Positions 6,851-26,893 of a stretch of 40,155 bases of DNA are shown piece after piece. The DNA is from a virus. Its lineage: Duplodnaviria > Heunggongvirae > Uroviricota > Caudoviricetes. Below the pieces are notes generated by a model. It saw nothing but the letters and a program-made list of their open reading frames with translations, was not told where the DNA came from and did not search any database. Position 1 is the stretch's first letter. Each line of letters begins with the position of its first letter. The stretch is from the IMG/VR virus record IMGVR_UViG_2541047888_000009. One strand, 5' to 3'. Position numbers and translations under genes: made by a program.

Positions 6851-6856
6851 AGAAAA

Positions 6857-6872
6857 GGCCGCGAAAGCGGCC
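6857..6872. terminator. Hairpin GGCCGC-GAAA-GCGGCC, terminator for the minus-strand membrane-protein gene and probably the plus-strand moron
   Basis: 6-bp GC stem; on the minus strand it is followed by TTTTCTTTAT; on the plus strand the T-run is displaced by the GTGACATGTCAC palindrome. Confidence 0.5.
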
Positions 6873-6873
6873 T

Positions 6874-6885
6874 GTGACATGTCAC
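6874..6885. repeat. 12-bp perfect palindrome GTGACATGTCAC, copy 1 of 3
   Basis: Exact 12-mer also at 24431..24442 and 26882..26893; all three in short intergenic gaps. Confidence 0.8.
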
Positions 6886-7178
6886 GTCCCTTTTCTGAAT
6901 GATAGCCATTCGAAAAATGATGACATTCCACCGCAGACAATAGCAAAGATGATCCCACCAAAGAAGAGAAGGCCAGCCTGCCACCACTCCCACCGCCATA
7001 CATCCACAGCGCCAACCATACCAACAATCGCTCCAACAAATGGAATATAGCTCACGATGAAAGCAATGGGGGCTGCAATTATCCAGTGCAATCCCCACCA
7101 TGATTCAAGCCCAGCCATAATTGCTGCCAACTGAAAAAGACCAACGACGATATAAACAATGAATCCTATAGCTTGCAT
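6882..7178 (-). CDS. Small integral membrane protein (98 aa), unknown function
   Basis: AGGTGA RBS; three hydrophobic helices and a Trp-rich loop (VDVWRWEWWQAG); lies between the last internal virion protein gene and the tailspike. Confidence 0.55.
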   Translation of the reverse strand: MQAIGFIVYIVVGLFQLAAIMAGLESWWGLHWIIAAPIAFIVSYIPFVGAIVGMVGAVDVWRWEWWQAGLLFFGGIIFAIVCGGMSSFFEWLSFRKGT

Positions 7179-7373
7179 GTAGTCACCTATTTACCCAGTA
7201 AAAATAAGAGGCCTCCCCTCAATAAGGCTTGCAACAAGAACTACTCCCTGCACAACAAAGATGAACCAGCAAATAGCTTGAGTCTGAGGGTTAAGAAAAT
7301 ATTTGTAGCGGTCAATAAATAACAATCCACCAGAAATTATCACACTCAAAATAATTAAAAACACAACACTTCC

Positions 7374-9848
7374 TTATTGCGGAGTGACATCCTGAGGTCG
7401 CCACCAGTATGTCTGGTTAAACTCTTTCTTCGAACGTTGCTCCATTTTACGCAAATAGCCTGGTGAAAAATACTCCTGCATCTGGTTAAAGATCATGTGA
7501 TCGAGAGCCGCCTTCAAGTACCAGAGATTCGCACCAGGCATCAAACCTTTCCCCAGCTTCACCAGATCACCACCAGTCTGCTCACTCTTCCCTTCCACAG
7601 CATTTAACGGTATGCCCTGAGCAATCTTCACTACGTCATCAACCAGACCAGCTACCGGGCCAAGCATCGACGCCAGCGCGCCGCTTCCGTACCTAGTGTG
7701 ATCTGACAATAAAAAGTCACCGTAAAGGCCAAGACCACCACCTTTCAGTAGAGCACCAAGCCAGAATTTTGCGGCATCTTCTCCTGTCATCTCTCGAGGA
7801 TTACGACCAGACGCAAGGTCGTTAAGTTGCTGCGACAAAGCGCCAAGAATGGTCGTACTGGCAATAAACGTCGCAATATATGCCGCACGCCCACCAGCAG
7901 ACGGCATACCCATAGCGCGTGACCAGTGACGCATAACAACCGAGATAGGGAACGATTTAAACAGGAAAACACTTCTCGTTAATTCACCTTTCCATGTTCC
8001 ACGCTGAATACCAGAACCGGTTATCAGTTGCTCACGTGCTCCCGGTGTAATAACAGCCATATCAACTTCTTCAGTTACGGCACCGAGCAGTTTACGCATT
8101 GCCTCAAATTTCACGCGTTCAGGCTCACCAAGATGTTTAACTGCTGAATCAGGGATACGCATAATGCTTTCCGGTGTCAGCATCGTATTATTACCGTTCC
8201 CCCAATCCTCCTGTTGCGCCAGCTTCCATACGCTCCAATCTGTGTCAGTAATCCCTTTGCTTTTCAGGATACGAAAATCAGAGTCATCGAGGCTACGAAG
8301 GTCTGGTGTCCGTGACACTACTTCTCCCAGGCTTCCCATCATGGTTACGCCATAGGCGCGCTTGTGCGCATCTGACCATGCTGTAAGCCCACTGGCACGC
8401 ATTACCGCCGTTGCCGCCCAACGAGACACTGACGGCCCCATATTATCCATCGCCCAGCGGTTAACGCTGCCAAGTAGAGATTCCATTGCCAGACCAGCGC
8501 GGCGCGCCCGCGCAAGTTCTGTACGGTTCGTTGGGTCCATAGCTTCAAGCTGGTTGCGGAATAACTGGTTCATTGGAAGGTTGGTAACCTTCGCAGACAG
8601 ATACATGGTTCCAAGATCAGAGAACGATGACAGCAACGCGGATCCGAGTCTGCTGGCAACCAGCCAGTTGCGGATATTGTCAGACCATCGCGCGATGTGC
8701 GGATTCGCTACAGGCTGTGTCTTTCCGGAAATAAAGTTGTACAGATTCTCTGTGTTGTTCGCCAGCCGCTCGACTTTACCGGTTTTACTCGGGTTAGCTG
8801 TTGCCGTTTCTGCCTTAACCTGATCAAGAAGGGAGCGGAAAACATGATCGGGGTTTGGACCATATGTTTCCACCAGAGCAATATCTTTACTGATACCTTC
8901 CAGGTGACCGACCATGATTTCCCATAGAGAGCGATCGCCATAAAGTTGTTGATATTGGAGATAGGAATCTGCATCTTTGAAATGTATCTGTCGTGATGCA
9001 TTACCACGGTTAGCACGTGCGCCGGAAATTCGCATTCCGGTATCAGTAAGCTTATTCAGCCCACCAGTAGCGATCGTGTTATAAGCCTCTCCAAGAAATG
9101 CAGACAACTCGGCATCGTTCATCAGTTGTCCATCGGCTCGGGTATAATATTTGCGATCCAGCTTACCTATAACATCGCTAACCCATTTATCTTTTGATAC
9201 CGCCCCAACCTTTTCCATAGAATGATGTTGAGGGATCCCCCAGTTTTCGAGATAGCCAATGTCCCCACCAGCATCATTAAACCGGCGGCGCAGTAGATCT
9301 GTCACTTCTCTCCACGCCTTAGCACCTTTTCTTGCTTTAGCATTGCCAGTATTTTGCCCTCGCATTTCATATACCAGGTCACGCACGCCCGCTTCATCTT
9401 CAAACAGGCCAAAAAAGCGAGGATCAACTGCTTCAAATGCCTCCTGCAATTGACTCAATGCATAATCACGAGTGGCTTTTGTTCTGGATTCAACAGAGAG
9501 GAAATTCGATTTACCGTCTGCATTAAAAGCAATAGTACGGTTAAGAGCGCCAAGTTTCCCATCAGCCCCTTGATAGCTATTGATAAATTTATCCAATCTC
9601 TGACGTGCGGCTATAGTGAGGGCCACACGACGTTTCTTTAATGCCGCTTCTCGCTGTAATTCTTCAGATGCCAATTGTGCTGCACGATACAACCGTTCTG
9701 ATTCGGAAAGTTGTCGCCACGACATAGGGTCATCACGAGCAATGGAGCGCATATTTCGATAAATGCGGTCTTCAATGTTCTGTATTTCTCGCGCCGTTAA
9801 CGTGCGCTGCGCCGCCTGCTGGACCGCTTGTATACATTCCTGTCTCAT
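7374..9848 (-). CDS. Large internal virion / DNA-ejection protein (824 aa)
   Basis: Position in the T7-like order after the gp15-like gene; GAGAGG RBS; Gly-rich hydrophobic C-terminal region. Function inferred from position and size only. Confidence 0.6.
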   Translation of the reverse strand: MRQECIQAVQQAAQRTLTAREIQNIEDRIYRNMRSIARDDPMSWRQLSESERLYRAAQLASEELQREAALKKRRVALTIAARQRLDKFINSYQGADGKLGALNRTIAFNADGKSNFLSVESRTKATRDYALSQLQEAFEAVDPRFFGLFEDEAGVRDLVYEMRGQNTGNAKARKGAKAWREVTDLLRRRFNDAGGDIGYLENWGIPQHHSMEKVGAVSKDKWVSDVIGKLDRKYYTRADGQLMNDAELSAFLGEAYNTIATGGLNKLTDTGMRISGARANRGNASRQIHFKDADSYLQYQQLYGDRSLWEIMVGHLEGISKDIALVETYGPNPDHVFRSLLDQVKAETATANPSKTGKVERLANNTENLYNFISGKTQPVANPHIARWSDNIRNWLVASRLGSALLSSFSDLGTMYLSAKVTNLPMNQLFRNQLEAMDPTNRTELARARRAGLAMESLLGSVNRWAMDNMGPSVSRWAATAVMRASGLTAWSDAHKRAYGVTMMGSLGEVVSRTPDLRSLDDSDFRILKSKGITDTDWSVWKLAQQEDWGNGNNTMLTPESIMRIPDSAVKHLGEPERVKFEAMRKLLGAVTEEVDMAVITPGAREQLITGSGIQRGTWKGELTRSVFLFKSFPISVVMRHWSRAMGMPSAGGRAAYIATFIASTTILGALSQQLNDLASGRNPREMTGEDAAKFWLGALLKGGGLGLYGDFLLSDHTRYGSGALASMLGPVAGLVDDVVKIAQGIPLNAVEGKSEQTGGDLVKLGKGLMPGANLWYLKAALDHMIFNQMQEYFSPGYLRKMEQRSKKEFNQTYWWRPQDVTPQ

Positions 9849-9853
9849 TTAAT

Positions 9854-11656
9854 TTAACCTCTCAAGAAACACGCCACAGCGACATCAAACAGGCTGGAAT
9901 CCTGTATTGCCTGCTCACTTTCCCTGTTCGCTTCATCCAGCACTTCACGCGCGCTGCGCGATTGTGGATTACCATCATCATCCAGCACGGTGATTATCAT
10001 GTCAGGTGATTCAAGCAGCGAGTCTTCAGCTATGCGCAGATCAATATCTCCTGCCTGATCCGCCATCATTTTTTGTTCTGCATGTTGCAATATTTTATCA
10101 GACTCAAAAGGAGCTACTTCGTCTGGCGTCCTGACCTCTGCTGTTTTATAGAATGAAACAGCCTGAGCATTAAGTTCACTTTCTGCCTGCTGTCTCCGAG
10201 CCAGTTCTGCTCGAGCTTCAAAAAACTGACCGCCAGGCTCATGCGGTGCCAACGCGTTACGGGAAAATTCCAGGCGTTCTTGTGCCTGCCGGATTCGTTG
10301 TTCAATATCGCGAATTCTGGCCTGTTTATCTGATCGAGCACGAGACAAAGCTTTACCGCTACCAGTTGGCTCTTCTGCAAGAATTTGTGCACGCTGTTCA
10401 GTGAGATTTTCAATAATTCGTTGGCTATTAGCGATTTCAGACTGGTAAACCTGTCTATCTCCACGCGGCAAAAGCTGCGCGGCCTGTTCTTCAAGCAACC
10501 GATTTTCTATAGCGCGCGCCGTTACTCCATCATCTACAGATGACAGAGCCTCATTAACTGCCTGAGACAGCAGACTCTTGCGCCCAGGAATTTCACTGAA
10601 AGATGCAGACTCAACAATGCTGGCAACGTCTACAGGTCTCCCCTGGCTAACATCAGACATAGCTTTTCGCAGAGCCTGAATGTGAGAATTGCGCGAAAGC
10701 ACGTTGATCGGCACGCCGGGCGCAATATCAATTTCAGCATGATGAGCGGCATTCGCCGCCAGTGCAGCATCAACATCAACTGGTGAAAAATTTGGTGCGC
10801 TTGTAGACTCGCCGCGAGAGTTAATAAATCTGCCGACTCCACCAAAAGCCACCCCAAGAACAGCATCAATAGCAATTGCCTGTCGATCCAACACATCATA
10901 CTGGTTAGCCATTTCGCTATAGCCACCATCACGAAGCGTTTTTGCAGTAAGCCCGCGCTGTGCCATACCGAACGCAATATTTGTACCTGCGGCATAGGCA
11001 ATATCTGGCGTTGCACGTACTGCTGTTGCCGCGGCGCGTCGCACTGAACTTTCACCCGTCCGCGCAAGCTGAGCCGCCACACCTTCCGCCAGCGCACCAC
11101 CAGCACGTAACCCGAGACTCATAGGGATCAGTGTTCCGGCACCAGCAGTAATACCCTGCACTAATCCCGCTTCCTGCGCCGTCCTGAAATCAACCCCCTG
11201 CGCTGTCAGTCGTTCAAACTCAGAAAAACCCTGTAGCGAAGTTACCGCCGCAGCACCTCCGACCGGACCACCGAGCGTTGTACCGACAACAGCCTGCCCG
11301 CCCATATCGAACAACCCATAAAGAACCTGCCCTGCGGTTCCGGTTGTCGCGGCATCAGGCGTCAGCCGCTTAACCTGCTGCTCTGCTAGTTTTCTCTGCT
11401 CGGCAATGTATGAAACTGAAGTGTCATTGAGCGAGGTGTTTTCGTTAACAAACTGAGCAATCGGGGATACGATTTTATCCATCCCTGCCCATAGCAACTG
11501 ATCTGGCTTTGCCACCAGCCCGGAGTACAAACCAGACAATGCCGCTCCTACAGCATTGTCGAAAAAACCAACATCGCTGTTAAAGCCAACTGGATTTGAT
11601 GCTGCTTCGTCAAGCTGCTGATTCTGGTTTACTGGATTAAGGCCAAAGTAACTCAT
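9854..11656 (-). CDS. Internal virion protein (600 aa)
   Basis: Tightly packed in the virion operon, Ala/Gly-rich, start overlaps the upstream gene stop. No motif recognised. Confidence 0.6.
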   Translation of the reverse strand: MSYFGLNPVNQNQQLDEAASNPVGFNSDVGFFDNAVGAALSGLYSGLVAKPDQLLWAGMDKIVSPIAQFVNENTSLNDTSVSYIAEQRKLAEQQVKRLTPDAATTGTAGQVLYGLFDMGGQAVVGTTLGGPVGGAAAVTSLQGFSEFERLTAQGVDFRTAQEAGLVQGITAGAGTLIPMSLGLRAGGALAEGVAAQLARTGESSVRRAAATAVRATPDIAYAAGTNIAFGMAQRGLTAKTLRDGGYSEMANQYDVLDRQAIAIDAVLGVAFGGVGRFINSRGESTSAPNFSPVDVDAALAANAAHHAEIDIAPGVPINVLSRNSHIQALRKAMSDVSQGRPVDVASIVESASFSEIPGRKSLLSQAVNEALSSVDDGVTARAIENRLLEEQAAQLLPRGDRQVYQSEIANSQRIIENLTEQRAQILAEEPTGSGKALSRARSDKQARIRDIEQRIRQAQERLEFSRNALAPHEPGGQFFEARAELARRQQAESELNAQAVSFYKTAEVRTPDEVAPFESDKILQHAEQKMMADQAGDIDLRIAEDSLLESPDMIITVLDDDGNPQSRSAREVLDEANRESEQAIQDSSLFDVAVACFLRG

Positions 11657-14166: not shown

Positions 14167-14711
14167 TATAATCCTCCGGGTAATCTGGTTCCTGCTGCTG
14201 CCCCGATTGGCGCAGGGGTGCTTTGAGTAAACGGACTCCACGTCCCACCAAACATCTGGTACGCACCGTATGCCTTCAGAGGCGCAGTGAGCAATGTTGT
14301 TGCTGCTCCTACATTCCCCTGTTTACGGGCTGAACTGGCTTCTGCTTTATAGTTGGCAGCCTGAACCTGATAACCGTAAGCCTCGCGTTGCGCGTTATTC
14401 ACCGTCGTCAGAGAATCAAGAGCGCCAAACTGGGCAGTGTCGCCAAATATATCCAGCGCGTTACCTGTAGATAAATCAGCGCCGGTAGCCCCCATTGTCG
14501 CCGCCTGTGTACCAAGCCGCTGTCGGGTCTCTCTGCGCCGTTGCTCAGCTTCAGCGTTACCTCTGTTTATTGCATCATTTGCCTGAGCAGTGGCTATATC
14601 TGCGTTCGCTTCTGCAACCTTCGAGGCATACTTTCCCTGTTGGTACTGGGTGTATGCCTGAATGCCACTCATGGCGAGCATTGCGCCACCAGCAATAACC
14701 GGATCGCACAT
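14166..14711 (-). CDS. Internal virion protein (181 aa; T7 gp14-like by position)
   Basis: Synteny only; Ala/Gln-rich; stop overlaps the downstream start. Confidence 0.55.
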   Translation of the reverse strand: MCDPVIAGGAMLAMSGIQAYTQYQQGKYASKVAEANADIATAQANDAINRGNAEAEQRRRETRQRLGTQAATMGATGADLSTGNALDIFGDTAQFGALDSLTTVNNAQREAYGYQVQAANYKAEASSARKQGNVGAATTLLTAPLKAYGAYQMFGGTWSPFTQSTPAPIGAAAGTRLPGGL

Positions 14712-15175
14712 TATTTTCTCTCCATGTGAAATCTGTGGAAATTAAGACCAAGAGCACCATAAGGCGCGGCCTCTTCAAGCCTGAATCCAAGCCAGTGCAG
14801 CCATGCTTTGGCAACATGGTTTCGCTCGTCGACGTAGTTTTCCAGGCGCGGATAAACTGCCAGCATCTGCTGCAATAAAGGTCGGCAGTGGCGAAGAAAT
14901 GTCTTCTGATATTTTTCAATACGGCTGGTTCCGACCAGCCAGGGCGTACCATTGCCACCGATCATTGACGCCGGAGATACGCCAAACATGGTTACCAGTT
15001 CTCCGTTCGCAAATCCTGACCAGGCCATAGTCGCAGTACGCAGACCAACACGCAGCGCATCTTCGGTAGTCATCAGTGATACCGCATACAGTTCGTCAAT
15101 ATCAGCCTGACGAACATCCGGCAAAATCATCTGAAGATGCTCTTCGGTAGCGGGAATAATTCGAACATCGATCAT
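14711..15175 (-). CDS. Virion protein (154 aa; T7 gp13-like by position)
   Basis: Synteny only; coupled to neighbouring genes by overlapping stop/start. Confidence 0.55.
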   Translation of the reverse strand: MIDVRIIPATEEHLQMILPDVRQADIDELYAVSLMTTEDALRVGLRTATMAWSGFANGELVTMFGVSPASMIGGNGTPWLVGTSRIEKYQKTFLRHCRPLLQQMLAVYPRLENYVDERNHVAKAWLHWLGFRLEEAAPYGALGLNFHRFHMERK

Positions 15176-17646
15176 CAGAATCCCCCAACAGTAAGGCGAG
15201 GAATAACGGCAAGAACAGACAGCGGCAACGGGTCAAGCTGACGGATTTTTACACGTCCGTTTTTGCCCCAGTTACTGTCCAGTTTCACTTCTACTTTTCC
15301 GGTAGCGTCATCAACAGGATCATCGTAGAACTCGAATTCACGCTGTGGATATTCGTACCATTTACCGCCGGGCGTAGTCGCCCAGATGCCGCGACTGGCA
15401 TTCACAACCAGAGTAACGGAGGGGATCACCTGTTTTTTGTCCAGCAGCGTTTCCTGTCCGTTAATGTTGATATCCAGTGTTTCGAATTCAGCAGTTATTG
15501 GCAGGCCGATGTGCACTACAGCCCCCGGAGATTCCAGCGTGACGGCACCTCCGGAAACCACTTTCTGTGGTTCCACGTTCGCATCAGAGAGAATGTTTAC
15601 GGTCTGGCCTTCAAGATGAGACAGGCCTCCAAATGTCCGGCGCGCCATCTGCCAGTTCGTGGTGGCCACATTCCTGAGGGATGGCGGGACGTTCCTGTTA
15701 GCACGAACCACTACAGCGGTATTGCTGGTTACAGAAATAATGTCGCAACGTAATTCTTTTGACACTTCATCGCCAGTATCAGGAACAGTTCCGGTATAAG
15801 GGAACTGTAGTTGCGCACCGACATCACTACTGGTGAAGTACGCACCACCAGAAACACTGATTGTATATTCCGCGCGGTAATCCCATTCGCCAGAACCACC
15901 AGTGATTGTCATCGTTCTGTCAGACGTATTTCTTCCATCATAGCTAAGGCCAGAATCAACAAAGAAAGCGTCTTCATCGCTGGTAAATAAACGGCTGGAC
16001 AGCCGTTCGATGTATCTCACTGTTTGCCCGTTAACGGTTCGGTTAACGACGAAATACACCGCATCTTCATTGCCTTCGCTGATACTGCATGTGCTTTCAT
16101 ATTTTCCGGTACTGGATTGTGGTGCCCATGCAAAAACCTGCTGATCACGCAAATAGGTCATCACCAGTAATTTACCGTCATCACGAATGCAGAAGGCGCT
16201 GGAGTAAGGGACAATCGAGAAGCACCAGTCAACAATGCTGTGCTTCTGAAAAAGATGATTGGCAAGGATGGTCAGGTCGTTCCCCTGATAGCCGTCAACA
16301 TCGAATGAGTAGGCCAGATCACGGACAACACTGCCTTTCTCCTGGACGAACAGAGCAATATTCGCCACGGCAATTGGTGGGACATTGCTCGAGCCATTTG
16401 ATCCCTGAGAGCTGAATGCAAATGATGATGGGGTAAGCACTTTGTTCTGGTCGCCAGTGATGACGTACTCACCTCCGGAAGTCAGCGCCACCAGCGAACC
16501 AACATCAATCAGGTGACGGATCTCATTAACCTGACGCCCGGCATAGGTGTAGATAATTCTGTCGTCATCCTGCGTAGGATTGCTTTTGCCAAAATCCTTA
16601 TAATCCCCGGTACGGCTGGCCCAGATAGTCTGAGGGAACGCAGTCGATGCGGCGAAGTAAAGGCGTTGTTGATAATAAACAACAGTGCCAGGATAACCGT
16701 TAATACTGTTCCAGGCATATTTAGCCCATTTATAGCTGGCATTATCCTCGCCAACTACCTGCGAAGGGATATAGGAAATCACCTCGGCAGTTGCAGTAGT
16801 TCCATTTGCAGCAGAGATACGGGCAATGCCAAAACCACTGTGCAGATACTCCCACTCAATGCCGGTATCATCATCACCGGATCCGCCCCAGCCATCCCAT
16901 GATGTGCCTTCTGTATGCGAAGGGCGCAAAGTGCCTGTTTTGCCTGCTGTAACGGCGCGATAGTAGTTACTGTCTGCACGGCGAATATCGCCAATCGACG
17001 TACTCTTACTGGTTTCCCATACCGGCACAGAATCCACTGCAGGCTGTTCCAGATAGAACAATTTGCCTACCTGCTCCGCGCCAAAAATTGAGGCGCTTGC
17101 CGTTAACGTAATTGTCCCGGTGCTGGCGCTGGCATAAACCGTCACTGACTCGTCAATATTGATATCTTCAAATGGCCCGTTCTTCGTTACCACATCAACC
17201 AGTTGCCAGTTGTCATGCGCATAGCGGCGCAACTCTTTCGGCGGGTATGCCGGATGAACCAGCGTAAGCACGTCTGCGCTTTGCGTGAATTTAATTCGGA
17301 ACAGATCGGCTTCAGTATATGGCGTGGCAATTTCATAAATAACATTGCTGCTGTTCAGCACCAACGCACCATCTTTGATAACGCGCATGTACTGGTGTCC
17401 GAACTCCAGAGCATAAGTCTGAACCGTCGAGAACTGGAACGGGATCAGGCGGCATTTCCGATTTGGGTATTTGGCGGCACCGACAAAACGCGTACCAGGT
17501 CGATTCTCAACGCCGCCATACTGCCGCACGATAAAGTTATCGCACTTGCGCAATGCCACCTGGTACTTCGCCATGTCGATACGACCGTACAACGACGGTC
17601 CAATCTCACCACCGGCAAAGCTGGGCTGGATCCAACTGATAGCCAT
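15175..17646 (-). CDS. Tail tubular protein B-like (nozzle; T7 gp12-like)
   Basis: 823 aa directly downstream of the gp11-like gene; size and position match podovirus tail tubular protein B. Weak motif recall. Confidence 0.6.
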   Translation of the reverse strand: MAISWIQPSFAGGEIGPSLYGRIDMAKYQVALRKCDNFIVRQYGGVENRPGTRFVGAAKYPNRKCRLIPFQFSTVQTYALEFGHQYMRVIKDGALVLNSSNVIYEIATPYTEADLFRIKFTQSADVLTLVHPAYPPKELRRYAHDNWQLVDVVTKNGPFEDINIDESVTVYASASTGTITLTASASIFGAEQVGKLFYLEQPAVDSVPVWETSKSTSIGDIRRADSNYYRAVTAGKTGTLRPSHTEGTSWDGWGGSGDDDTGIEWEYLHSGFGIARISAANGTTATAEVISYIPSQVVGEDNASYKWAKYAWNSINGYPGTVVYYQQRLYFAASTAFPQTIWASRTGDYKDFGKSNPTQDDDRIIYTYAGRQVNEIRHLIDVGSLVALTSGGEYVITGDQNKVLTPSSFAFSSQGSNGSSNVPPIAVANIALFVQEKGSVVRDLAYSFDVDGYQGNDLTILANHLFQKHSIVDWCFSIVPYSSAFCIRDDGKLLVMTYLRDQQVFAWAPQSSTGKYESTCSISEGNEDAVYFVVNRTVNGQTVRYIERLSSRLFTSDEDAFFVDSGLSYDGRNTSDRTMTITGGSGEWDYRAEYTISVSGGAYFTSSDVGAQLQFPYTGTVPDTGDEVSKELRCDIISVTSNTAVVVRANRNVPPSLRNVATTNWQMARRTFGGLSHLEGQTVNILSDANVEPQKVVSGGAVTLESPGAVVHIGLPITAEFETLDININGQETLLDKKQVIPSVTLVVNASRGIWATTPGGKWYEYPQREFEFYDDPVDDATGKVEVKLDSNWGKNGRVKIRQLDPLPLSVLAVIPRLTVGGF

Positions 17647-18580: not shown

Positions 18581-18624
18581 TCCTGCAATAAAGGGGCCGA
18601 AGCCCCTTGTCTGATACGCGAGGC

Positions 18625-18960: not shown

Positions 18961-18970
18961 CGATATCCCC

Positions 18971-19408
18971 TTAGCCGGTTACTTTGGAGCGGATCGGATA
19001 CGGCGTATTTGCATCAACATCCAGGTTAATGCCGGAAGTGAATTTGCCGGCCGTTAGTGGGCCAGTTGCGACGGAGTAGTTAACACGCAGATATCGCTGA
19101 ACACCGGCAGGCACCTTTGCAGAAACAACTCGTTTACCTGCTGTCAGGGTAGCCTTTGCCAGTGCGCCACTATCATAAATAGTGGACCATGAGCTGTTAT
19201 TCTCACTCGTCTGCAACTGGATGTTTACAGTTGCCTCACCACTTGCCGTGGCGGCTTCGTTAACCAGCGCCCAAAACTCAAGCGGGTAACCCACGCCGAT
19301 ATCGCGACGATTTCCATCAATTGGACCGAGATCGATTACGTCAGTAGAAGCCGCGGTATCAGTTACCGCCTGTGCTTCGGAGAACATCAACAGTTTGTCG
19401 GTGATCAT
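18971..19408 (-). CDS. Capsid-associated protein (145 aa)
   Basis: Immediately downstream of the major capsid gene; beta-rich Thr/Ser/Val composition. Confidence 0.5.
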   Translation of the reverse strand: MITDKLLMFSEAQAVTDTAASTDVIDLGPIDGNRRDIGVGYPLEFWALVNEAATASGEATVNIQLQTSENNSSWSTIYDSGALAKATLTAGKRVVSAKVPAGVQRYLRVNYSVATGPLTAGKFTSGINLDVDANTPYPIRSKVTG

Positions 19409-19459
19409 CTTCTTTCTCCATTAGTGGGTCTGTTACGACCCACTGGTTAATAACAGGCG

Positions 19460-20452
19460 TTACACCACACGGGCTTCTGTTTCCAGAAGCGCATCAGTTT
19501 CACGGATTGGTACACCACGGAATGAAGTCCACCACTCGCCTTCTGTCTCTTTTACGCTGATCGCCAGAGATGTTTTCTCCAGAGATTGCAGATCAAGAGC
19601 CTGGCCTACAGTGCGGTTCATGTAGAACACCGGGCGACCCATTCCACGGTTTGGAATGCGATGCAGTGCTTTAACCATCAACTTCGCAATATTTGCGGCA
19701 GAGGAAGGTTCTGAAAGATTGCTGACATCGATGTTTGCAATGCGAACAACATAACGCCAGTCACGCAGAGCAAGTCCGTTGTCCCATTTGTAATGGGTGC
19801 GATAGCCTTCGTACTTGCCGCCATTAGCATCTTCCAGTGTCACCTGGCCTTTATCTTCCATCTGGATGCCAGCCTTCTGCCCTTTCGGGAAGATGCCATG
19901 CACGGTGTTTTCGCCCCACACCACTAACCAGATTGAGGTGTTATCTGTACCCGTGCCACCAGCATCAATGATGTTCTGAGCATTACCCGCAGACAGGCTG
20001 GAATAGCGGGAGGACAGTCCCATAAACTGCTGAGGGTTAACGCTGGAATCACCATAAAACAGTGTCTGCGCCATCTGCTGATTCATCGCTTCAATAAATG
20101 CGCGGTCTTCAGACAGGCGGAATTCGGCGGTATTACCGTTCAGATCAGCCAGTGACTTATCGACTTCAGCATAGGTTTCCAGCATGCCAACGTAATCGGT
20201 GACCTGCACTGTGGTTGATTTGCTTGGCTGTACGCCATAGTTCAGCAAACGCCAGGTAGCTGAAGGTAAACCAGAACGAATGGTGGTTCGGTGTCCGGTA
20301 GGAAGGTTCCCTTCGACAAAAGGCATATCCTGAAGGATCGGGTTAGTTTGACCGAGAAGCTCGATAATCTTATCGACTTTCCCGTTTGGATCGACGCGCT
20401 TACCCCAGTCAGCCAGCGTTAGCGCAGTTAAGCCTTTAACAGACATTGTCAT
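19460..20452 (-). CDS. Major capsid protein
   Basis: 330 aa, directly after the scaffold-like gene and before small head proteins; a hairpin follows the stop. Assignment by position and composition. Confidence 0.75.
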   Translation of the reverse strand: MTMSVKGLTALTLADWGKRVDPNGKVDKIIELLGQTNPILQDMPFVEGNLPTGHRTTIRSGLPSATWRLLNYGVQPSKSTTVQVTDYVGMLETYAEVDKSLADLNGNTAEFRLSEDRAFIEAMNQQMAQTLFYGDSSVNPQQFMGLSSRYSSLSAGNAQNIIDAGGTGTDNTSIWLVVWGENTVHGIFPKGQKAGIQMEDKGQVTLEDANGGKYEGYRTHYKWDNGLALRDWRYVVRIANIDVSNLSEPSSAANIAKLMVKALHRIPNRGMGRPVFYMNRTVGQALDLQSLEKTSLAISVKETEGEWWTSFRGVPIRETDALLETEARVV

Positions 20453-20460
20453 TTCCTCTC

Positions 20461-21162
20461 TTATTTGCCATAGAGCACTTCGGCCGCACTACGCTGGCCT
20501 TCATTACCACCGGTGACCATGCCATCTTCAGACATCGCCTTTCCGATTTTCACGAACGTTTTGACCAGATCAGGGTGATTACCCAGCCCGGTGGTGTTCA
20601 GATATTCTTTGAGTTCAGGTGTCCCGAACTGGTCAAGCGCACGCTGTGCGGCGCTAAGGTTAGAAATCAACTTGTCGCCACCGATTTCTTTGTCAGCTTT
20701 TACATCCGCAGCCCACTGCTCGGTTGTTTTCTGCCAGGCTTCTGCCTGGCGCTGCTGAACACCTGCCAGAATCTTCGGATAAGCATCAACCAGCTTTTGC
20801 GCTTGCTCGTTGGTCAGGTTTAGTTCTCGCGCCACCGGCTCGAATTCCTTCAACGCTTCTGTATCCAGCTCTACGCCTTCGGCAGCCTGAAACTCGTACT
20901 TCTCAGGCGCACCATCTGGTTTATCGCCGTCCTTTTTTTCATCCTGCTTATCGTTTTCAGGCTTTTTGTCATCAGCAGGTTTATCGCCATCAGCAACAGG
21001 TTGTGGCTTATCACCTTCCGGTTGTGATGGATCACCAACTGGAGCAGGGTTATCACCTGCAGGCGCTGACGGTTCTGACGCAGCCGGAGCTGCTCCACCA
21101 TCGACTGGTTGCTCATTGCAAAGACGGCGATACAGCAAACGCTCAAATAAATTCATGATCAC
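20461..21162 (-). CDS. Scaffolding-like protein (acidic, Pro/Asp/Lys-rich N-terminus)
   Basis: 233 aa between portal and capsid genes; low-complexity acidic N-terminal half (GDKPQPVADGDKPADDKKPENDKQDEKKDGDKPDG). Confidence 0.55.
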   Translation of the reverse strand: MIMNLFERLLYRRLCNEQPVDGGAAPAASEPSAPAGDNPAPVGDPSQPEGDKPQPVADGDKPADDKKPENDKQDEKKDGDKPDGAPEKYEFQAAEGVELDTEALKEFEPVARELNLTNEQAQKLVDAYPKILAGVQQRQAEAWQKTTEQWAADVKADKEIGGDKLISNLSAAQRALDQFGTPELKEYLNTTGLGNHPDLVKTFVKIGKAMSEDGMVTGGNEGQRSAAEVLYGK

Positions 21163-21455
21163 TCCTGTTCACTGGCCTCTTTGGCCATCTTCAAATACTG
21201 TTCAGGGCAATGCGCCATAACGCGCTGAAACAGTTCCAGCGCCAGATTGCGTTGCCCCTCATTAAATGCCATTGCCATAGCGTCCATCGGTGAGATAGCG
21301 GAAAACACACGGCCTTTCTCCAGCACCGACCAGACAACGCGACGCCCCTGTTCACTGCTCATGACAAAGCGAATGTCATCAATTTCACGCTGTGCCATGT
21401 CACGTTGCTTACGGGCGTTTTCTTCTTTCAGTTGATCATCTTCGTAATCTGTCAT
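21159..21455 (-). CDS. Small head-module protein (98 aa), unknown function
   Basis: Sits between portal and scaffold genes with overlapping stop/start. Confidence 0.5.
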   Translation of the reverse strand: MTDYEDDQLKEENARKQRDMAQREIDDIRFVMSSEQGRRVVWSVLEKGRVFSAISPMDAMAMAFNEGQRNLALELFQRVMAHCPEQYLKMAKEASEQE

Positions 21456-23131
21456 TGTGATTGCCCACCCTGACCACTAACTGCATTCGCCATAGCTGAC
21501 AAAACACTCGGATCCGAAGTTTTAGCTTCGCTTAGCGTCTTGGCGCCCTGTGCCGCCGCCATTCCCATCGCCATCATTTGTTGCTGCTGTTGCTGCTGTG
21601 CCCGTTGCTGGCGAGCCTGCTCAACCTGTTCCTGCGGAACAATGACGGTTGGAGACACTCCGGACATATCAGCGAATGCATCGATCGCCTGATCAACATT
21701 GAGTTTGTCGAGAGCTTCTGGTTTCGCTTGCGCAAGTTGACCAATGAAGTTGACCGTAGACGCCAGACTGGACAGGCCGATAGACTTCTGCGCCTGAGCC
21801 ATGACGGAAATGTATTCGACCTTCAGGGGCATACCTTCCATCGCGTCAGGCGGTGGCGGCAGCATGTTTTTACGCACCATCATCGAGAAAGCGCGGTCAA
21901 TGAGAGGATTAAGACATTCGTCGTTCAGACGCTCCAGAACCGGCCCCAACATCAGAAGTTTTTCTTCTTTCATTTCGATCACCGCTTCAACAGGCATCGA
22001 GCGGGTATTGATGTTCTGCAACATCATGAACAGATCGACAAAGTAGGCGCTGTTAATGATTTGACGAGTGTCCTGAATGTCTGCCACCAAATCTGCTGTA
22101 CTGGGGTTAACCAGATAAGCAGGCCTGAAGCCATCCTGACCAGTAATCTGATCGATATACGTGATGTCGCCAGGAAGAAGGGAGGCGCGCTGATTCTTGA
22201 GGGAAGTCGGAGCAACCATCGGCGGATTGGTGGCTTTATCAATCAACTGCGACTTGCGCTTCTGGAGAAGCTGCAATGCCTTAACAGGTCCAAGCGCCAG
22301 CATACCCGGGCATGATGATCCATAAACATCTTCGCCGTTAACTTCCCAGCGCGGAGCCATAATTGGAAACTCATCGAATCCGGACTCACGCAACAACTTG
22401 TCGTTATCTCCACCAACCTCGTAATAAACCGATTTGAATGGCTTGTTCTTGCTATCCAGCTTCGATGTATCGCGGTCAATGTTCGGGTAAACCGAATGCA
22501 TCACTTCGATCCACTTCTCGTAGGTGCCGCTTTCCCACATGCTTTTTACGGATTCGCTGACGTTATTTAGCCCGAACTCCTGAACAAGCTGACGAACAGT
22601 CATAGAGAACTTGCGAAAACAGGTGTCAACACTGCCACGAGGTGAGTTAGCCAGGTAGTAACTGCCTATCGGGAATGGCATTGTGCGAATGATGTCCTCG
22701 TCATCCTCCAGCACTGCCATTGCACCAGTGCTGTATGTGCCGAGGCTTCCGTATAACTGCGGAAGAGACTGGTAGAGATTCGACTTATTGAACATATCGT
22801 TCATGCGGTTCTGAACTGCCTCAAGCCACAACTTAACAGGGCCATAATCCATCATTTCAGGATCTGGCGTAGCCAGGCGAAACCACGGACGCGCAGGGCT
22901 TGTGATGCCTGACATCATGCCGCTGGCGAGAGTGCGCGCCGCCATAGTCCCGGTCGAATCAATAATGCGTGTATTGCGTCGATCGTTACGGTTGACCTCA
23001 GAAGTCAGAAAGCGGGAACCACGCGGGTTGATGTAATCACTCAACTCGCGCCAGTGCGGCTCGAACGACTGACGCTCGCTTTCAAGTTGTGCGAACTGTT
23101 TGTTCAATCGCTCTTTAGTTGTTTCCGCCAT
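21452..23131 (-). CDS. Portal protein
   Basis: 559 aa, first gene of the head module; poly-Gln C-terminal tail (QQRAQQQQQQQ). Confidence 0.8.
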   Translation of the reverse strand: MAETTKERLNKQFAQLESERQSFEPHWRELSDYINPRGSRFLTSEVNRNDRRNTRIIDSTGTMAARTLASGMMSGITSPARPWFRLATPDPEMMDYGPVKLWLEAVQNRMNDMFNKSNLYQSLPQLYGSLGTYSTGAMAVLEDDEDIIRTMPFPIGSYYLANSPRGSVDTCFRKFSMTVRQLVQEFGLNNVSESVKSMWESGTYEKWIEVMHSVYPNIDRDTSKLDSKNKPFKSVYYEVGGDNDKLLRESGFDEFPIMAPRWEVNGEDVYGSSCPGMLALGPVKALQLLQKRKSQLIDKATNPPMVAPTSLKNQRASLLPGDITYIDQITGQDGFRPAYLVNPSTADLVADIQDTRQIINSAYFVDLFMMLQNINTRSMPVEAVIEMKEEKLLMLGPVLERLNDECLNPLIDRAFSMMVRKNMLPPPPDAMEGMPLKVEYISVMAQAQKSIGLSSLASTVNFIGQLAQAKPEALDKLNVDQAIDAFADMSGVSPTVIVPQEQVEQARQQRAQQQQQQQMMAMGMAAAQGAKTLSEAKTSDPSVLSAMANAVSGQGGQSQ

Positions 23132-23145
23132 TTCAATGACTCCGG

Positions 23146-23352
23146 TTACTGACCAAGCAGCGTTTTACCGCTGGTATTAGCGGTTGATGTGTCGCCCTGA
23201 GAACCGGTAAGCAGCGTAGAACTACGACCAGCAGCAGCGCGACGGCGACGTGTTTCTTCGTCGCGGGCATCAACAACGGCGGCATCCTGCTCCTGTGGTG
23301 CTGCCTGAACTTCTGGTGTTGCAGGCACTGATGGTGAGCTACCCATGCACAT
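23146..23352 (-). CDS. Small Ser/Thr/Arg-rich protein upstream of portal
   Basis: ATG with GGAG RBS 8 nt upstream; 68 aa; low complexity. Confidence 0.4.
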   Translation of the reverse strand: MCMGSSPSVPATPEVQAAPQEQDAAVVDARDEETRRRRAAAGRSSTLLTGSQGDTSTANTSGKTLLGQ

Positions 23353-23420
23353 ATCAATGACTCCGTACGCAATTAAATCATTACCAATTTAACCACATAT
23401 GATTTATTTATCGTAGAATG

Positions 23421-23457
23421 TTGACATTTAACGCGTGAATTATTACCTTTCAGGTAA
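23421..23457 (+). promoter_or_regulatory. Candidate moron promoter: -35 TTGACA (23421..23426), 17-bp spacer, -10-like TACCTT inside an operator palindrome (23443..23457, TTACCTTTCAGGTAA)
   Basis: Consensus -35 hexamer; the -10 candidate coincides with the left half-site of the repressor operator motif. Confidence 0.4.
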
Positions 23458-23779
23458 CTAAAGAGCTCATTCTGGTTACTAACCTGACTGGCTTGTCGTT
23501 AAATTAAACAGGTGGAGTGAGCTTTTATTTTGAGCAGTACGGCGTATGGCACATGCGCCGATAGCGGTCTGGATACGTTTAAGGGGCACCCTCCCTTGCT
23601 CGGGCAAACGAACCAGGTAGCCGGAATGTGCAAGTCGAGCGGTTTTATTCCGCGCACGGGGATTCACCATCCCGGCGATTCGGTGTGACGCCTCGGAAGA
23701 GACGAGGGTACAACGATGAGAGCATTTATGGAGCCGCGACAAAGTGTGGCGCCTTAACAGGCTAAGTGCTCTCAGCGTT

Positions 23780-23856
23780 GTGGCATTAGCTCAGTCGGAC
23801 AGAGCAACCGCCTTCTAAGCGGTTGGTCGCAGGTTCGAATCCTGCATGCCACGCCA
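23780..23856 (+). tRNA. tRNA-Arg (anticodon UCU, reads AGA)
   Basis: Full cloverleaf folded by hand: acceptor GTGGCAT/ATGCCAC, D-arm GCTC-AGTCGGACA-GAGC, anticodon arm ACCGC-CTTCTAA-GCGGT, T-arm GCAGG-TTCGAAT-CCTGC, discriminator G, encoded CCA. Confidence 0.85.
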
Positions 23857-23899
23857 GAATCACGCCTAAGGACCGTGATGCCAGAAGTTCCAGGGGCTT

Positions 23900-23942
23900 G
23901 GCGGTGATGGTTTCCCTTGAAGGACTATCACCGCCCTTTTTA
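23900..23942 (+). terminator. Hairpin plus T-run downstream of the tRNA
   Basis: GGCGGTGAT ... ATCACCGCC (9-bp stem, long loop) followed by CTTTTTA. Confidence 0.45.
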
Positions 23943-24019
23943 CAGCAGGACGCCATTGCGATGACTTCATGCTGTAAACCCGTACAGCCACGGAAGGCAT
24001 AACTCATTGCTTCCAGTTC

Positions 24020-24043
24020 GCCCGGTTCGCCGGGCATTTTTTT
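24020..24043 (+). terminator. Strong intrinsic-terminator-like hairpin immediately upstream of the gp49-like gene RBS
   Basis: GCCCGG-TTCG-CCGGGC followed by ATTTTTTT; the AAGGTGA RBS and the ATG at 24055 follow directly. Confidence 0.5.
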
Positions 24044-24054
24044 AAGGTGAGATT

Positions 24055-24426
24055 ATGAACGACAAGCAAATCGAAAAAGAAATCGTTGAGAAAGGCAAAA
24101 CGGCACCGCGCGTTACGCCAGACCATATCGAAGGCATTATTGCTCAGGAGGCATATTTCACAGCAGAAGATGGTGCCTTTGGCAAAGCCATAAAAGCGAA
24201 ACATACTGGCGGAGAGGTAAACTACCAGCCGCACGAATCACTTTCTCTGCTGACGTTCTGCGTCCTGGTGCTGCGCAACGGCTTCACCGTCACCGGAGAG
24301 AGCGCCTGTGCAAGCCCGGAAAACTTTGATGCAGAAATTGGTCGGAAGATTGCCCGGCAGAATGCTGTAAACAAAATCTGGATGCTCGAAGGTTACTTGC
24401 TGAAGCAGAAGCTAAGCGAGCAATAA
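24055..24426 (+). CDS. Moron protein, probably of the phage gp49-like family (N4 Gp49 / Sf6 gene 66)
   Basis: 123 aa, opposite strand to the flanking terminase and portal genes; AAGGTGA RBS; segment TAEDGAFGKAIKAKHTGGEVNYQPHESLSLLTFCVLVLRNGFTVTGESACASPENFDAEIGRKIARQNA resembles that family. Family from memory. Confidence 0.6.
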   Translation: MNDKQIEKEIVEKGKTAPRVTPDHIEGIIAQEAYFTAEDGAFGKAIKAKHTGGEVNYQPHESLSLLTFCVLVLRNGFTVTGESACASPENFDAEIGRKIARQNAVNKIWMLEGYLLKQKLSEQ

Positions 24427-24430
24427 CACC

Positions 24431-24442
24431 GTGACATGTCAC
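24431..24442. repeat. 12-bp perfect palindrome GTGACATGTCAC, copy 2 of 3
   Basis: Exact repeat, 5 bp after the stop of the gp49-like gene and just before its terminator hairpin. Confidence 0.8.
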
Positions 24443-24446
24443 AAAC

Positions 24447-24474
24447 AGCCAGCCTATGAGCTGGCTTTGTTTTA
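24447..24474 (+). terminator. Rho-independent terminator of the tRNA/gp49-like moron
   Basis: AGCCAGC-CTATGA-GCTGGCT followed by TTGTTTT. Confidence 0.65.
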
Positions 24475-24516
24475 TCCTCATCAGAGGATATCAACGACAT
24501 TATCCCCACCAGCGGA

Positions 24517-25992
24517 TTAAGCATAGGGATCGTAATCTGTGATGGCCTTGCCTTGCTGGTTCTGCTGCCCGGGAATTCGCAGACGCTTCGACACAGGGAA
24601 CGCAAACGTCAGCAGTAGCGCATCGCCTTTACCAGGCGAACGCCCAAGCCGCTCCTTGATATCTTCCTTCGGTTCGATAACGATTTTACCGTCCACTCGA
24701 ACTTTGTACTCTGCCGCCGACAGATCGTCCGCTGTTTCCTGGTCATCCAGCATCCCTCCCAGCCTCAGCCATGTCTTGCATGAGTTGAACATCTCCCCAC
24801 GCTTGTTGAGCATCTGCTGGTCAGTAGACGCGCCACCGAACGGAACAAGTTGCCATGTACGACCCCAGCCGTCACCGATTGACTTCAAACCGGTTCCGTA
24901 ACCGAAGTCGATGAACACCGCGTCAGCCTGATACTGGTCTTCAAAGTCAGCGATACGCTTCGCCATAATCAGATCGTCGGTAGTCTTGTTGCCAGTCCAC
25001 AGCACCTTACTGTGTAGCCCCTGCCGCAGGTATATCACAGCGTCATCAACGCCGGAGTATGCCGGGTCAACGCCGATTATCACCGGAGCATGTGCAACCT
25101 GCGCAGCGGTGACCACCCGTTTCATTGCCTCGTCAGTAAGTCCGGTAGGGATAAACTGCAATTCAGATGCATCCGGGAATATGCCGCGCACACGGATTTT
25201 AACGAAGTCGCTGTCTTCCCCGTAGTCATCAACCCATTTCTGCAACTGCTGTTTGTTAGTGCCTTCCACCGTCCGGCTGTCAATCTGCGCAGTTTTCCAG
25301 CGGTGTTTATATTTGCGGAAACATTCGCGGAAACGCCCGGTGTTACGTGTAGGGTTTCCGAACGCCACCCAGATAATCTCAGTGTCTTCGTCCGTAAGCG
25401 CACCCTCAGCAACTTCCCACACCAGATCCGCAATGTTCGACGCTTCATCGAATACCACGATGATGCGTTTGCGCTCGTTGTGTAGTCCGGCGAATGCCTC
25501 AGTGTTGTGCTCAGACCAGGGGATTGCGTCAGCTCGCCACCGCTTGTCGTGCCCAGGATCATTGCTGTACATCGCGGTAGCGGTACAGGTAAACCAGTCT
25601 TTCGTGATAGCAAGGTTCGACCACTTGATAATTTCCGGCCAGGTCTTCGTTCGTAGCTGGTTGTCGGTGTTGGCGGTCACCACGACCTTACAATCCTCGC
25701 AAGTGGACATGCCCCAGTTGATCAGCATTGAGATGAATGCGGATTTACCAATACCGTGACCAGAAGCGCGTGCCAGCATAAGCGGCTGATAGCGCGTCGC
25801 TGGATTCTGCAGGTGATCACGTATCTCTCGGAACGCATCAGCCTGCCACTGACGTGGGCCGGTAGCATGTGCCAGTTCAGTCCCTTCTTCCCCCCACGGG
25901 AACGCATAGAGGGCATAGCCAAGCGGATCGTGAGTGAACCCTGCAATATCCTCGATCAACTGCTCTTCAGGAGATAACGCTGTATCTGTCAC
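24517..25992 (-). CDS. Terminase large subunit
   Basis: 491 aa; Walker A-like ARASGHGIGKS; acidic nuclease-type C-terminal half; start overlaps the small-subunit stop. Confidence 0.85.
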   Translation of the reverse strand: MTDTALSPEEQLIEDIAGFTHDPLGYALYAFPWGEEGTELAHATGPRQWQADAFREIRDHLQNPATRYQPLMLARASGHGIGKSAFISMLINWGMSTCEDCKVVVTANTDNQLRTKTWPEIIKWSNLAITKDWFTCTATAMYSNDPGHDKRWRADAIPWSEHNTEAFAGLHNERKRIIVVFDEASNIADLVWEVAEGALTDEDTEIIWVAFGNPTRNTGRFRECFRKYKHRWKTAQIDSRTVEGTNKQQLQKWVDDYGEDSDFVKIRVRGIFPDASELQFIPTGLTDEAMKRVVTAAQVAHAPVIIGVDPAYSGVDDAVIYLRQGLHSKVLWTGNKTTDDLIMAKRIADFEDQYQADAVFIDFGYGTGLKSIGDGWGRTWQLVPFGGASTDQQMLNKRGEMFNSCKTWLRLGGMLDDQETADDLSAAEYKVRVDGKIVIEPKEDIKERLGRSPGKGDALLLTFAFPVSKRLRIPGQQNQQGKAITDYDPYA

Positions 25993-26588
25993 TGATTGCC
26001 ATCCTGACGTTCTTTCAGTCTCTTCCTGGCTGCCGCTATGCGATCAGCAATTGTCACATTCACATTAACATCCAGGCGTTCTTTGAACGCGTTGACATCA
26101 ACATGCTTACCAATCAGCTCAAGGTTCTTCACCTTGTCAGGCCATTTAATTTTTTTGAGGATTGTCTCTATCGAATCCTCGTTCATGTTCATGATGGTCG
26201 ATGACAGATCAAAGCCGCTAAGCGTAGTGCGCCAGATTTTCGGCCACTCACGGATTGGTTTAAGGCTCCCATCGTCGTTGAGGATGTCGATCACGTCCAT
26301 CTGGTCGATCTCCACCAGGCGCATGAGAACGTAATCAGCACTGACGCGCATTCGTTTGTTGCGCTCCTCCATCAACTCGGCAATCCGTTTTTGAATGCGT
26401 TCATCGCGCATCATGACACTGGCTTTAACTGCCGCTGTATTTGGGGAGAATCCTGCGTTAATCGCTGCCTGAGTCTGGTTTTCAGGCGTTTTGATGTATG
26501 ACTGGCAATAAGCCTCCTGCATTGCTGTTAGTGGCTTAAATTGCGTTGATTTGCGTTTATAGGTTTTAGGTTCAGCAGGCATCATAAC
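25989..26588 (-). CDS. Terminase small subunit
   Basis: Immediately upstream of and overlapping the large subunit; segment LTAMQEAYCQSYIKTPENQTQAAINAGFSPNTAAVKASVMM matches the small-terminase pattern. Start at internal Met assumed. Confidence 0.7.
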   Translation of the reverse strand, partial: VMMPAEPKTYKRKSTQFKPLTAMQEAYCQSYIKTPENQTQAAINAGFSPNTAAVKASVMMRDERIQKRIAELMEERNKRMRVSADYVLMRLVEIDQMDVIDILNDDGSLKPIREWPKIWRTTLSGFDLSSTIMNMNEDSIETILKKIKWPDKVKNLELIGKHVDVNAFKERLDVNVNVTIADRIAAARKRLKERQDGNQ

Positions 26589-26659
26589 CACCGTGGTAAT
26601 AGTTACCGTTGTGGTAATAGTACCATGCAAAATAAAGCCGCCATAGTTGGCGGCAGTAT

Positions 26660-26872
26660 TCAAAGTCCATCAAATTCATCGTAAAAACTCTCGTCAAGAT
26701 ACCCTTCCCATTTACCGCGAATGAAAATTACATCCTCGCCGCAAGGGTGCTGACTGTCGATAACTATATCCCTCCTGGCGCAACCATACTTATGCATGAG
26801 AAATTTAACCTCTTTCGGAAAATTTGCTGAGTTATCTCTCATATCTTCAAGGTCGTAGCGTATTTTTGGCAT
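26660..26872 (-). CDS. Small hypothetical protein upstream of the terminase genes
   Basis: ATG at 26872 (MPKIRYDLEDM...); the listed ORF extends to a GTG inside the 12-bp palindrome, which is unlikely to be the true start. Confidence 0.45.
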   Translation of the reverse strand: MPKIRYDLEDMRDNSANFPKEVKFLMHKYGCARRDIVIDSQHPCGEDVIFIRGKWEGYLDESFYDEFDGL

Positions 26873-26881
26873 AACACCTTC

Positions 26882-26893
26882 GTGACATGTCAC
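26882..26893. repeat. 12-bp perfect palindrome GTGACATGTCAC, copy 3 of 3
   Basis: Exact repeat in the gap between the Zn-ribbon gene (stop 26890) and the small gene starting at 26872. Confidence 0.8.

Follow-up and report, generated by a model that had tools for sequence, protein, structure and literature searches.

Known systems and the repeated palindrome

The closest described counterpart of the element presented here is matS, the site of the host protein MatP, which has the 13-bp consensus GTGAC-RNY-GTCAC (quoted in PMC3603311). The prophages examined in 69 Escherichia and Salmonella genomes contain no matS motif, and the motif is avoided in them (PMC3603311). The element in question is the 12-bp perfect palindrome GTGACATGTCAC, which occurs three times in a viral DNA of 40,155 nucleotides, the IMG/VR record IMGVR_UViG_2541047888_000009. 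This whole stretch is referred to below as the window. It represents a phiV10/epsilon15-like temperate podophage (Uetakevirus) with the late genes on the minus strand, and its structural region is 97% identical to those of phiv142-3 and phiV10. The comparison of related and unrelated phage sequences leads us to propose, with a probability of roughly 0.55, that the palindrome is the DNA recognition site (operator) of the gp49-family protein encoded at 26890-27228 and a candidate boundary element. The three exact copies, one imperfect copy inside an open reading frame (ORF), and the gene of the candidate protein are the following.

26882..26893: site A, GTGACATGTCAC, including the TGA (26890-26892) with which the gp49-family gene stops; it closes the early-right operon, upstream of terS
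24431..24442: site B, GTGACATGTCAC, between the terL stop codon (24517) and a hairpin on one side and the stop codon of the convergent gene 24055..24426 on the other
6874..6885: site C, GTGACATGTCAC, at the end of the structural-gene unit, holding the TGA of ORF 6882..7178, 0 nt from the start of a stem at 6873
21392..21403: one-mismatch copy GTGCCATGTCAC, inside the p08-like ORF 21159..21455
26890..27228, minus strand: gene of the candidate binding protein, 112 aa, homologue of epsilon15 gp49, phiV10 p55 and N15 gp46 (PHROG 536)

An earlier reading of the window, made from its letters only (the sequence-only reading), had described a perfect 12-bp palindrome in three copies, far beyond chance. 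Exact copies are indeed present at the three positions, and the rest of the window has none. Base composition predicts 0.0024 copies for the window, with a probability of about 2e-9 for three or more, and no copy appeared in any of 100 dinucleotide-preserving shuffles of the window; together these values exclude a chance origin. No other site of the form GTGAC-N0-6-GTCAC is present in the window besides the three copies. The 14-mer CGTGACATGTCACA is common to all three of them in one orientation. For the sequence-only reading, a longer common repeat of which the motif is a fragment would have counted against it. The identity, however, reaches just 1 base beyond the palindrome, and the 40-base flanks of the three copies are unrelated, with 8-17 of 40 bases identical per side. 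A longer dispersed repeat or the end of a mobile element is excluded, the flank identity being at random level beyond that base. The imperfect copy at 21392 is kept as GTGACATGGCAC in many phiV10-like loci and missing from epsilon15; it may be a weak fourth site or merely conserved coding sequence.

The half-sites of the palindrome are the same as those of matS. However, the centre consists of 2 bp (12 bp in total) and not of 3 (13 bp) in all copies of the window and in nearly all copies of its relatives, and a clade of Pseudomonas phages has GTTAC half-sites. While matS is located in the Ter macrodomain of the chromosome and is absent from prophages, the sites described here are carried by phages, one of them in the stop codon of the phage gene itself. 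In view of the missing central base and of the avoidance of matS by prophages, the phage motif is not matS. We infer that it is read by a protein of the fold class to which MatP belongs. Homology of the phage protein to MatP itself is rejected, with an hhalign probability of 0.3%; the four-helix bundle and the coiled coil of MatP are missing from the phage protein, which has a Cys4 zinc module instead.

The ribbon-helix-helix repressors (Arc and Mnt of P22, CopG, omega, antitoxins of the ParD, MazE and TacA types, and NikR) are small proteins with short symmetric targets, and theirs is the fold predicted for the phage protein. Regulation of its own gene by the phage protein is likely, as in these repressors, and the Pseudomonas-type clade has a site at the 5' end of the gene. 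However, the conserved operator of the phage gene lies at its 3' end and not over a promoter, the other copies are found at the ends of operons or within genes, and a zinc module is appended to the protein. The antitermination systems (lambda N with nut, lambda Q with qut, RfaH with ops) are similar in having short cis elements in transcribed paths before terminators. Moreover, two sites of the ZF40-like phages flank the immunity region as nutL and nutR do. The phage protein, however, is not homologous to N, Q or the NusG family, the site is a perfect DNA palindrome and not an RNA stem-loop or a promoter-embedded element, and the phages N15 and AH07 have a separate Q-like gene.

Palindromes for dimeric proteins are also represented by the 12-bp site of SlmA, GTGAGTACTCAC, and by the CRP site, TGTGA-N6-TCACA, which contains GTGA and TCAC. 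The motif differs from the SlmA site at 4 of 12 positions, its centre of 2 bp does not have the CRP spacing of 6, as the sequence-only reading had pointed out, and neither protein explains the linkage to a phage gene. The motif had also been distinguished from the operator of the phage repressor, and rightly so. This operator has the form TTACC-N5-GGTAA in the window, with eight copies (6501, 23443, 26603, 30904, 30966, 33297, 34009 and 34071), and ATTACC-N4/5-GGTAAT for Rep of the epsilon15-like phages; the palindrome differs from it in sequence and in position.

Association of the palindrome with the gp49-family gene

The sequence-only reading had suggested a search of related phage genomes at the equivalent junctions, and the copies are kept there. 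In epsilon15 and SPN1S the exact 12-mer is found at all three equivalent positions. In phiV10 exact copies are present at B and C, while position A is occupied by the one-mismatch form GTGACATGTTAC, which spans the ends of the record. The site at position C is located at 19493 in phiV10, 19517 in epsilon15 and 19662 in SPN1S. The DNA of epsilon15 is about 76% identical to the window, and the sequence adjoining the sites varies.

A set of 80 IMG/VR loci was retrieved with the protein encoded at 26890-27228. In 77 of the 80 a site begins at the final base of the gp49-family gene and holds its TGA; of the other three, one is truncated by the locus end. Of 77 evaluable loci, 52 have a second site past terL, at 1.5-3.5 kb from gp49 on its downstream side. 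The early-region DNA upstream of the gene contains one site in 551 kb.

The association of gene and site extends to unrelated phages. The Pectobacterium myovirus ZF40 encodes a protein 68% identical and carries three exact copies, one of them 2 nt past the stop codon of the gene. N15 and phiKO2 (39% identity) have GTGACTGGTCAC three times each, at the same three positions, with one copy overlapping the stop codon of the gene. Two sites, one on the stop codon, beside xis, are found in the Pantoea phage AH07 (64%), three 12-mers and one matS-like 13-mer in the Vibrio phage K308 (37%), and one exact copy in a P2-like Yersinia phage (38%). In a Vibrio-type clade around the member P0207 (34%) the site lies on or beside the stop codon. 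About 0.04 such sites would be expected by chance per phage genome that carries a homologue. The search in the reverse direction gave a corresponding result: among 80 viral stretches chosen solely by the 14-mer TGTGACATGTCACA, 20 encode a family member within the partial stretch, and several others are ZF40-like loci with two copies. For the divergent member P0226 no viral loci were retrieved. A conserved two-gene module with the downstream ORF, for example a toxin-antitoxin pair, was considered and rejected, the downstream ORFs of the window and of N15 being unrelated.

The most distant clade examined, around P0282 from Pseudomonas genomes, has the site GT[G/T]AC-NN-GT[A/C]AC. There are 86 such sites in 270 kb (18 loci), and the gene of this clade has one site at its own stop codon and another within codons 3-10. 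The form GTTAC-NN-GTAAC does not occur in 1.59 Mb of enterobacterial-type loci. The site thus changes along with the protein, and this is the strongest argument that the phage protein, and not a conserved host factor, would be its reader. The two copies on either side of the immunity region of the ZF40-like phages are situated within genes, one of which is cII-like. In these lineages the 13 bases xGTGACATGTCAC are 100% conserved while the neighbouring codons have diverged. This indicates selection on the nucleotides themselves. A symmetric site, its co-occurrence with one gene across lineages and the variation of its half-sites with the clade are therefore all observed here, as expected of the operator of a ribbon-helix-helix repressor.

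The candidate protein belongs to a family of 211 representatives (E <= 0.001, in a library clustered at 50% identity), almost all of about 105-135 aa. They are found in epsilon15/phiV10-like podophages, N15-like linear-plasmid phages, ZF40-like, P2-like and T7-like temperate phages, and Vibrio and Pseudomonas phages. The conserved features are an N-terminal basic helix (R8, R13), a strand-like segment G-x4-E-(V/I)-x-L, two helices and a C-x2-C ... C ... C module. Searches of Pfam, NCBIfam, PADLOC and the PDB sequences with the protein gave no significant match. The first structure model was built on a shallow alignment and was poor (predicted local distance difference test score, pLDDT, of 63); Foldseek gave nothing useful with it. 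A confident model resembles ribbon-helix-helix DNA binders, including MatP, with the Cys4 zinc module following, and Foldseek gave nothing significant with this model. For the family, the prediction is a ribbon-helix-helix preceded by a basic helix at the N-terminus and followed by a Cys4 zinc module at the C-terminus. The C-terminal half contains a CxxCGxxLP motif, in likeness to the C4 zinc fingers of DksA and TraR. The matches of this module to YbiI and TraR (E of about 0.02 in a profile search of the PDB sequences; 65% hhalign probability for TraR) are weak and unconfirmed by fold comparison.

Several observations concern individual phages of this set. In AH07 (locus L209) an exact GTGACATGTCAC at 34430 lies inside the Q-like antitermination gene and encodes V-T-C-H of a CxxC motif, which could be a coincidence or a regulatory link. 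Locus L057 is a temperate phage with T7-like structural genes. In its stretch 15501-16126, a 190-aa ORF placed between the genes for scaffold and major capsid has an exact palindrome on either side, and a terminator comes after the second; the gp49 homologue of this phage has no site at its stop codon. Past the gp49-family gene, at a distance of about 60-75 nt, the Pseudomonas-type phages (loci L213-L230) share a conserved element TTGGCAC-N4/5-T(G/C)(T/C)A, recognized by inspection, with a likeness to the -24 part of sigma-54 promoters.

Proposed function and alternative explanations

The sequence-only reading had considered a binding site for another dimeric regulator. The comparative evidence points the same way and allows a candidate, the gp49-family protein, to be named. 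The protein would act as a dimer, with one subunit on each GTGAC half-site across a 2-bp centre that is free in sequence; one subunit per half-site is proposed from the dimeric DNA binding of the ribbon-helix-helix fold. Gene and site would form a module, with one copy built into the stop codon of the gene and the others elsewhere in the phage genome. The bound dimer may serve as a boundary element that sets the flow of transcription across the junctions of units or into accessory genes. This control could include the read-out of the gp49-family operon into the late genes as well as feedback on its own operon, and the mode of action would not be that of a classical promoter-bound repressor. 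The copy statistics, the conservation, the tie between gene and site, their co-variation and the predicted fold are results of the analysis, whereas binding, dimer state and transcriptional effect are what we infer for this protein.

The suggestion of a boundary role comes from the settings of the sites, for which the following features of the window are relevant.

26637..26654, minus strand: intrinsic terminator hairpin, ending the early-right unit downstream of site A and followed by the Rep operator (26603-26617) and terS
26660..26872, minus strand: accessory ORF of 70 aa (PHROG 1541), starting 9 nt after site A, missing or replaced in many relatives
24447..24466, plus strand: terminator hairpin 4 nt from site B, with a T-run that is good on the plus (accessory-gene) strand and weak on the minus strand
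24055..24426, plus strand: accessory (moron) gene, Pfam Phage_gp49_66, like gene 66 of Sf6, ending TAA-CACC directly before site B
6856..6873, minus strand: terminator hairpin abutting site C; late transcription runs from it into TTTTCTTT
6882..7178, minus strand: ORF of 98 aa (PHROG 3075) with its stop codon inside site C

Three of the eight repressor operators are located directly upstream of terS (26603), of a gp3-like gene with the portal gene (23443) and of the tailspike gene (6501). The late genes are therefore arranged in successive co-directional units, each opened by an operator, and these units appear to be under direct control of the prophage repressor, as annotated in epsilon15. 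The three palindromes lie at the 3' ends of successive co-directional units, namely the early-right operon, terS-terL and portal-to-tail. The operators at 26603, 23443 and 6501 open the next units, and terminators lie 0-4 nt from sites B and C. In relatives without the inserted ORF the hairpin equivalent to 26637..26654 is found 22-44 nt past site A. The motif adjoins the hairpins at 6856-6873 and 24447-24466 and is part of neither, a GC-rich hairpin with a T-run being taken as the mark of an intrinsic terminator. The order of stop codon, site and terminator is repeated, with a gap of 4 nt, at one copy of L057; a Pseudomonas-type locus has a looser version of it (about 22 nt) at one copy. In the epsilon15-like phages, ZF40 and K308 the gp49-family gene takes the place that Q has in lambda, closing the early operon ahead of the late or lysis genes.

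These settings modify the earlier description in some respects. It had correctly put one copy, site A, upstream of the terminase region. That all copies fall in short intergenic gaps is only loosely true of the window, where the copies at 26882 and 6874 contain TGA stop codons, and is not true of relatives. Likewise, of the two copies said to follow directly the stop codons of moron genes beside hairpins, the one at 24431 does so, 4 nt after the stop codon of 24055..24426, while the one at 6874 is separated from the stop codon of 6578..6850 by the hairpin 6856-6873.

Several points weigh against the operator and boundary role. The sites of the window have no convincing overlap with promoters and are all at the 3' ends of genes, and a site at the 5' end of the protein's own gene is found only in the Pseudomonas-type clade. 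The tight association with terminators is strong only in the Uetakeviruses and L057. The ZF40-like, N15-like and Pseudomonas-type phages have many sites within genes, for example repA of N15 and a terminase gene. A permanent roadblock is unlikely at sites inside essential genes, and the general function of the family may be architectural, as for MatP, rather than transcriptional. No site is present in an Aeromonas phage whose homologue is weak and partial. Finally, the SPN1S homologue (L231, 38348-38656) has a replaced N-terminus (MATTTTRRQNLLELELVL...) and has lost the conserved basic helix, and SPN1S nevertheless retains all three palindromes. With the sites intact though the N-terminus is replaced, SPN1S is uninformative as a natural loss-of-function test.

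A different function for the same pair is unlikely, though it deserves mention. The gp49 protein and GTGAC-NN-GTCAC could be a phage-private counterpart of MatP/matS acting on DNA organisation, or the protein could, tethered to the DNA, gate RNA polymerase at inter-operon terminators. In the former case the protein would bridge the three sites, insulate modules, or exclude host complexes of the SMC/MukBEF type from the phage DNA, and the spacer shorter by 1 bp would separate the phage system from host MatP/matS.

A recombination site, an RNA hairpin and a site of host MatP are all less likely than an operator of the gp49-family protein. The first of these, also raised in the sequence-only reading, would make the motif a target of site-specific recombination or a microhomology hotspot through which accessory cassettes are swapped at junctions. 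In the Uetakevirus loci the motif is the exact border between conserved and variable DNA. Beyond site A at least three cargos are found (the accessory ORF of the window, a short remnant or a LexA-box promoter), and beyond site B at least six unrelated reverse-strand ORFs, all ending TAA/TAG-CRCC-motif. With variable DNA directly beyond it, the motif is an invariant island at the edge of the variable DNA. The 190-aa ORF of L057, inserted between scaffold and capsid genes with a copy on either side, would also agree with recombination. This agreement is superficial, however. The same accessory gene in lambdoid phages (protein 97.6%, 74% identical) ends without the motif. The motif thus belongs to the backbone and not to the cassette, and its origin as part of an accessory-gene cassette is rejected. 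In the ZF40-like, N15/phiKO2 and Pseudomonas-type phages the sites are found within conserved genes with conserved flanks and no junction, and no recombinase co-varies with the motif. Borders at the edge of the motif are in any case expected if the motif is the part that cannot be lost. We therefore consider recombination improbable.

Slightly less probable is an RNA element, in which the motif would form a small hairpin at the 3' end of transcripts, either nut-like or Com-like or as an aid to termination or mRNA stability; the arginine-rich N-terminus of gp49 might bind it. Every copy does lie in a transcribed path, often just 5' of a terminator hairpin, and the conserved N-terminal helix is arginine-rich. 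However, the motif gives at most a 4-bp stem with a 4-nt loop, and the minimum-energy fold at site A does not include it. The half-sites do not co-vary but are invariant, and the non-palindromic centres of N15 and phiKO2 occur in both orientations relative to transcription. The stable stem-loop, compensatory changes and fixed orientation of a nut/boxB-type element were thus not found. In addition, a hairpin needs no perfect two-fold symmetry, and the predicted fold is that of a double-stranded-DNA binder. The weak stem, the invariant half-sites and the centres in both orientations fit a dimeric binder of double-stranded DNA better than an RNA element.

The motif could also be the site of a conserved host protein, most obviously MatP, which is exploited by the phage. 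MatP is encoded by most hosts of the motif-carrying phages (Enterobacterales, Vibrio, Aeromonas), the half-sites are identical to those of matS, and K308 carries one true 13-bp matS-like copy. The spacer, however, is 2 bp and not 3 in essentially all copies, and matS is avoided by prophages, as mentioned above. In several unrelated lineages of phages the site and the gp49-family gene are physically linked, and the half-site becomes GTTAC together with the phage protein in the Pseudomonas phages; we know of no MatP in Pseudomonas. A host reader is accordingly a poor candidate, marginally behind the RNA element.

The weakest explanation, that the palindrome is a bidirectional -35-like hexamer (GTGACA compared with TTGACA) for accessory genes or a short late leader transcript, is very improbable: GTGACA has 5 of 6 consensus bases, site A of epsilon15 has, by inspection, TAAATT 17 bp downstream and then a terminator, and a scan gives GTGACA-18-AATGAT at site C, but neither the window nor phiV10-type relatives have a conserved -10 at a suitable distance, promoter-like matches are no more numerous than in shuffles, and the coding-region sites of other phages do not fit.

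Neighbouring features and significance

The accessory slots next to the sites show some further features. In five loci (L051, L055, L075, L080 and L081) a TTGACT -35 and a perfect LexA box, TACTGTTTAAATATACAGTA, lie within 6 nt past site A. This insert is probably an SOS-controlled antirepressor cassette in the slot that is held by ORF 26660-26872 in the window. The product of ORF 6882..7178 is probably a membrane protein, with a weak similarity to a holin family, and that of the convergent ORF 6578-6850 shows a weak likeness to antirepressor C-termini (PHROG 1760); both are accessory genes in a variable slot. Away from the three sites, five direct copies of TCCCGTTTTTGG are found at 32213, 32237, 32261, 32279 (one mismatch) and 32342, spanning 32213-32353. 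They lie within the minus-strand ORF 31800..32615, the positional equivalent of the phiV10 replication-initiation gene p43, and look like origin iterons of the lambda-O type.

The pair of protein and site appears to be undescribed. A literature search on the 12-mer and its variants found nothing relevant in the searchable library that it covered, absence from which is no proof. The sequence TGACATGTCA appears in one ribbon-helix-helix paper, on ArtA of pSK41, where another site is treated, and a paper on vB_EcoP_ZX5 does not treat the gp49-family gene. In comparison with known pairs of ribbon-helix-helix protein and operator, the unusual features are the operator in the stop codon of the regulator gene, the matS-like half-sites, and the placement at boundaries between operons and accessory genes.

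If the proposed function is correct, it supplies a concrete DNA target for a family which has no Pfam or NCBIfam match and is named "hypothetical protein" or "transcriptional regulator" in databases. The module is easily recognised by the site in the gene's own stop codon. The half-sites shared with matS and the avoidance of matS by prophages raise the possibility of a phage system parallel to host MatP without cross-talk. Should the protein instead be a counterpart of MatP or a gate for RNA polymerase, the pair would represent a new class of phage cis/trans module, marked by an operator in the stop codon of the regulator. In the Uetakeviruses the sites coincide with the three slots for accessory and lysogenic-conversion genes. 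This would mean, if the boundary role is true, that the gp49-family protein may decide between insulation and coupling of accessory genes and late operons, which is of interest for the biology of morons.

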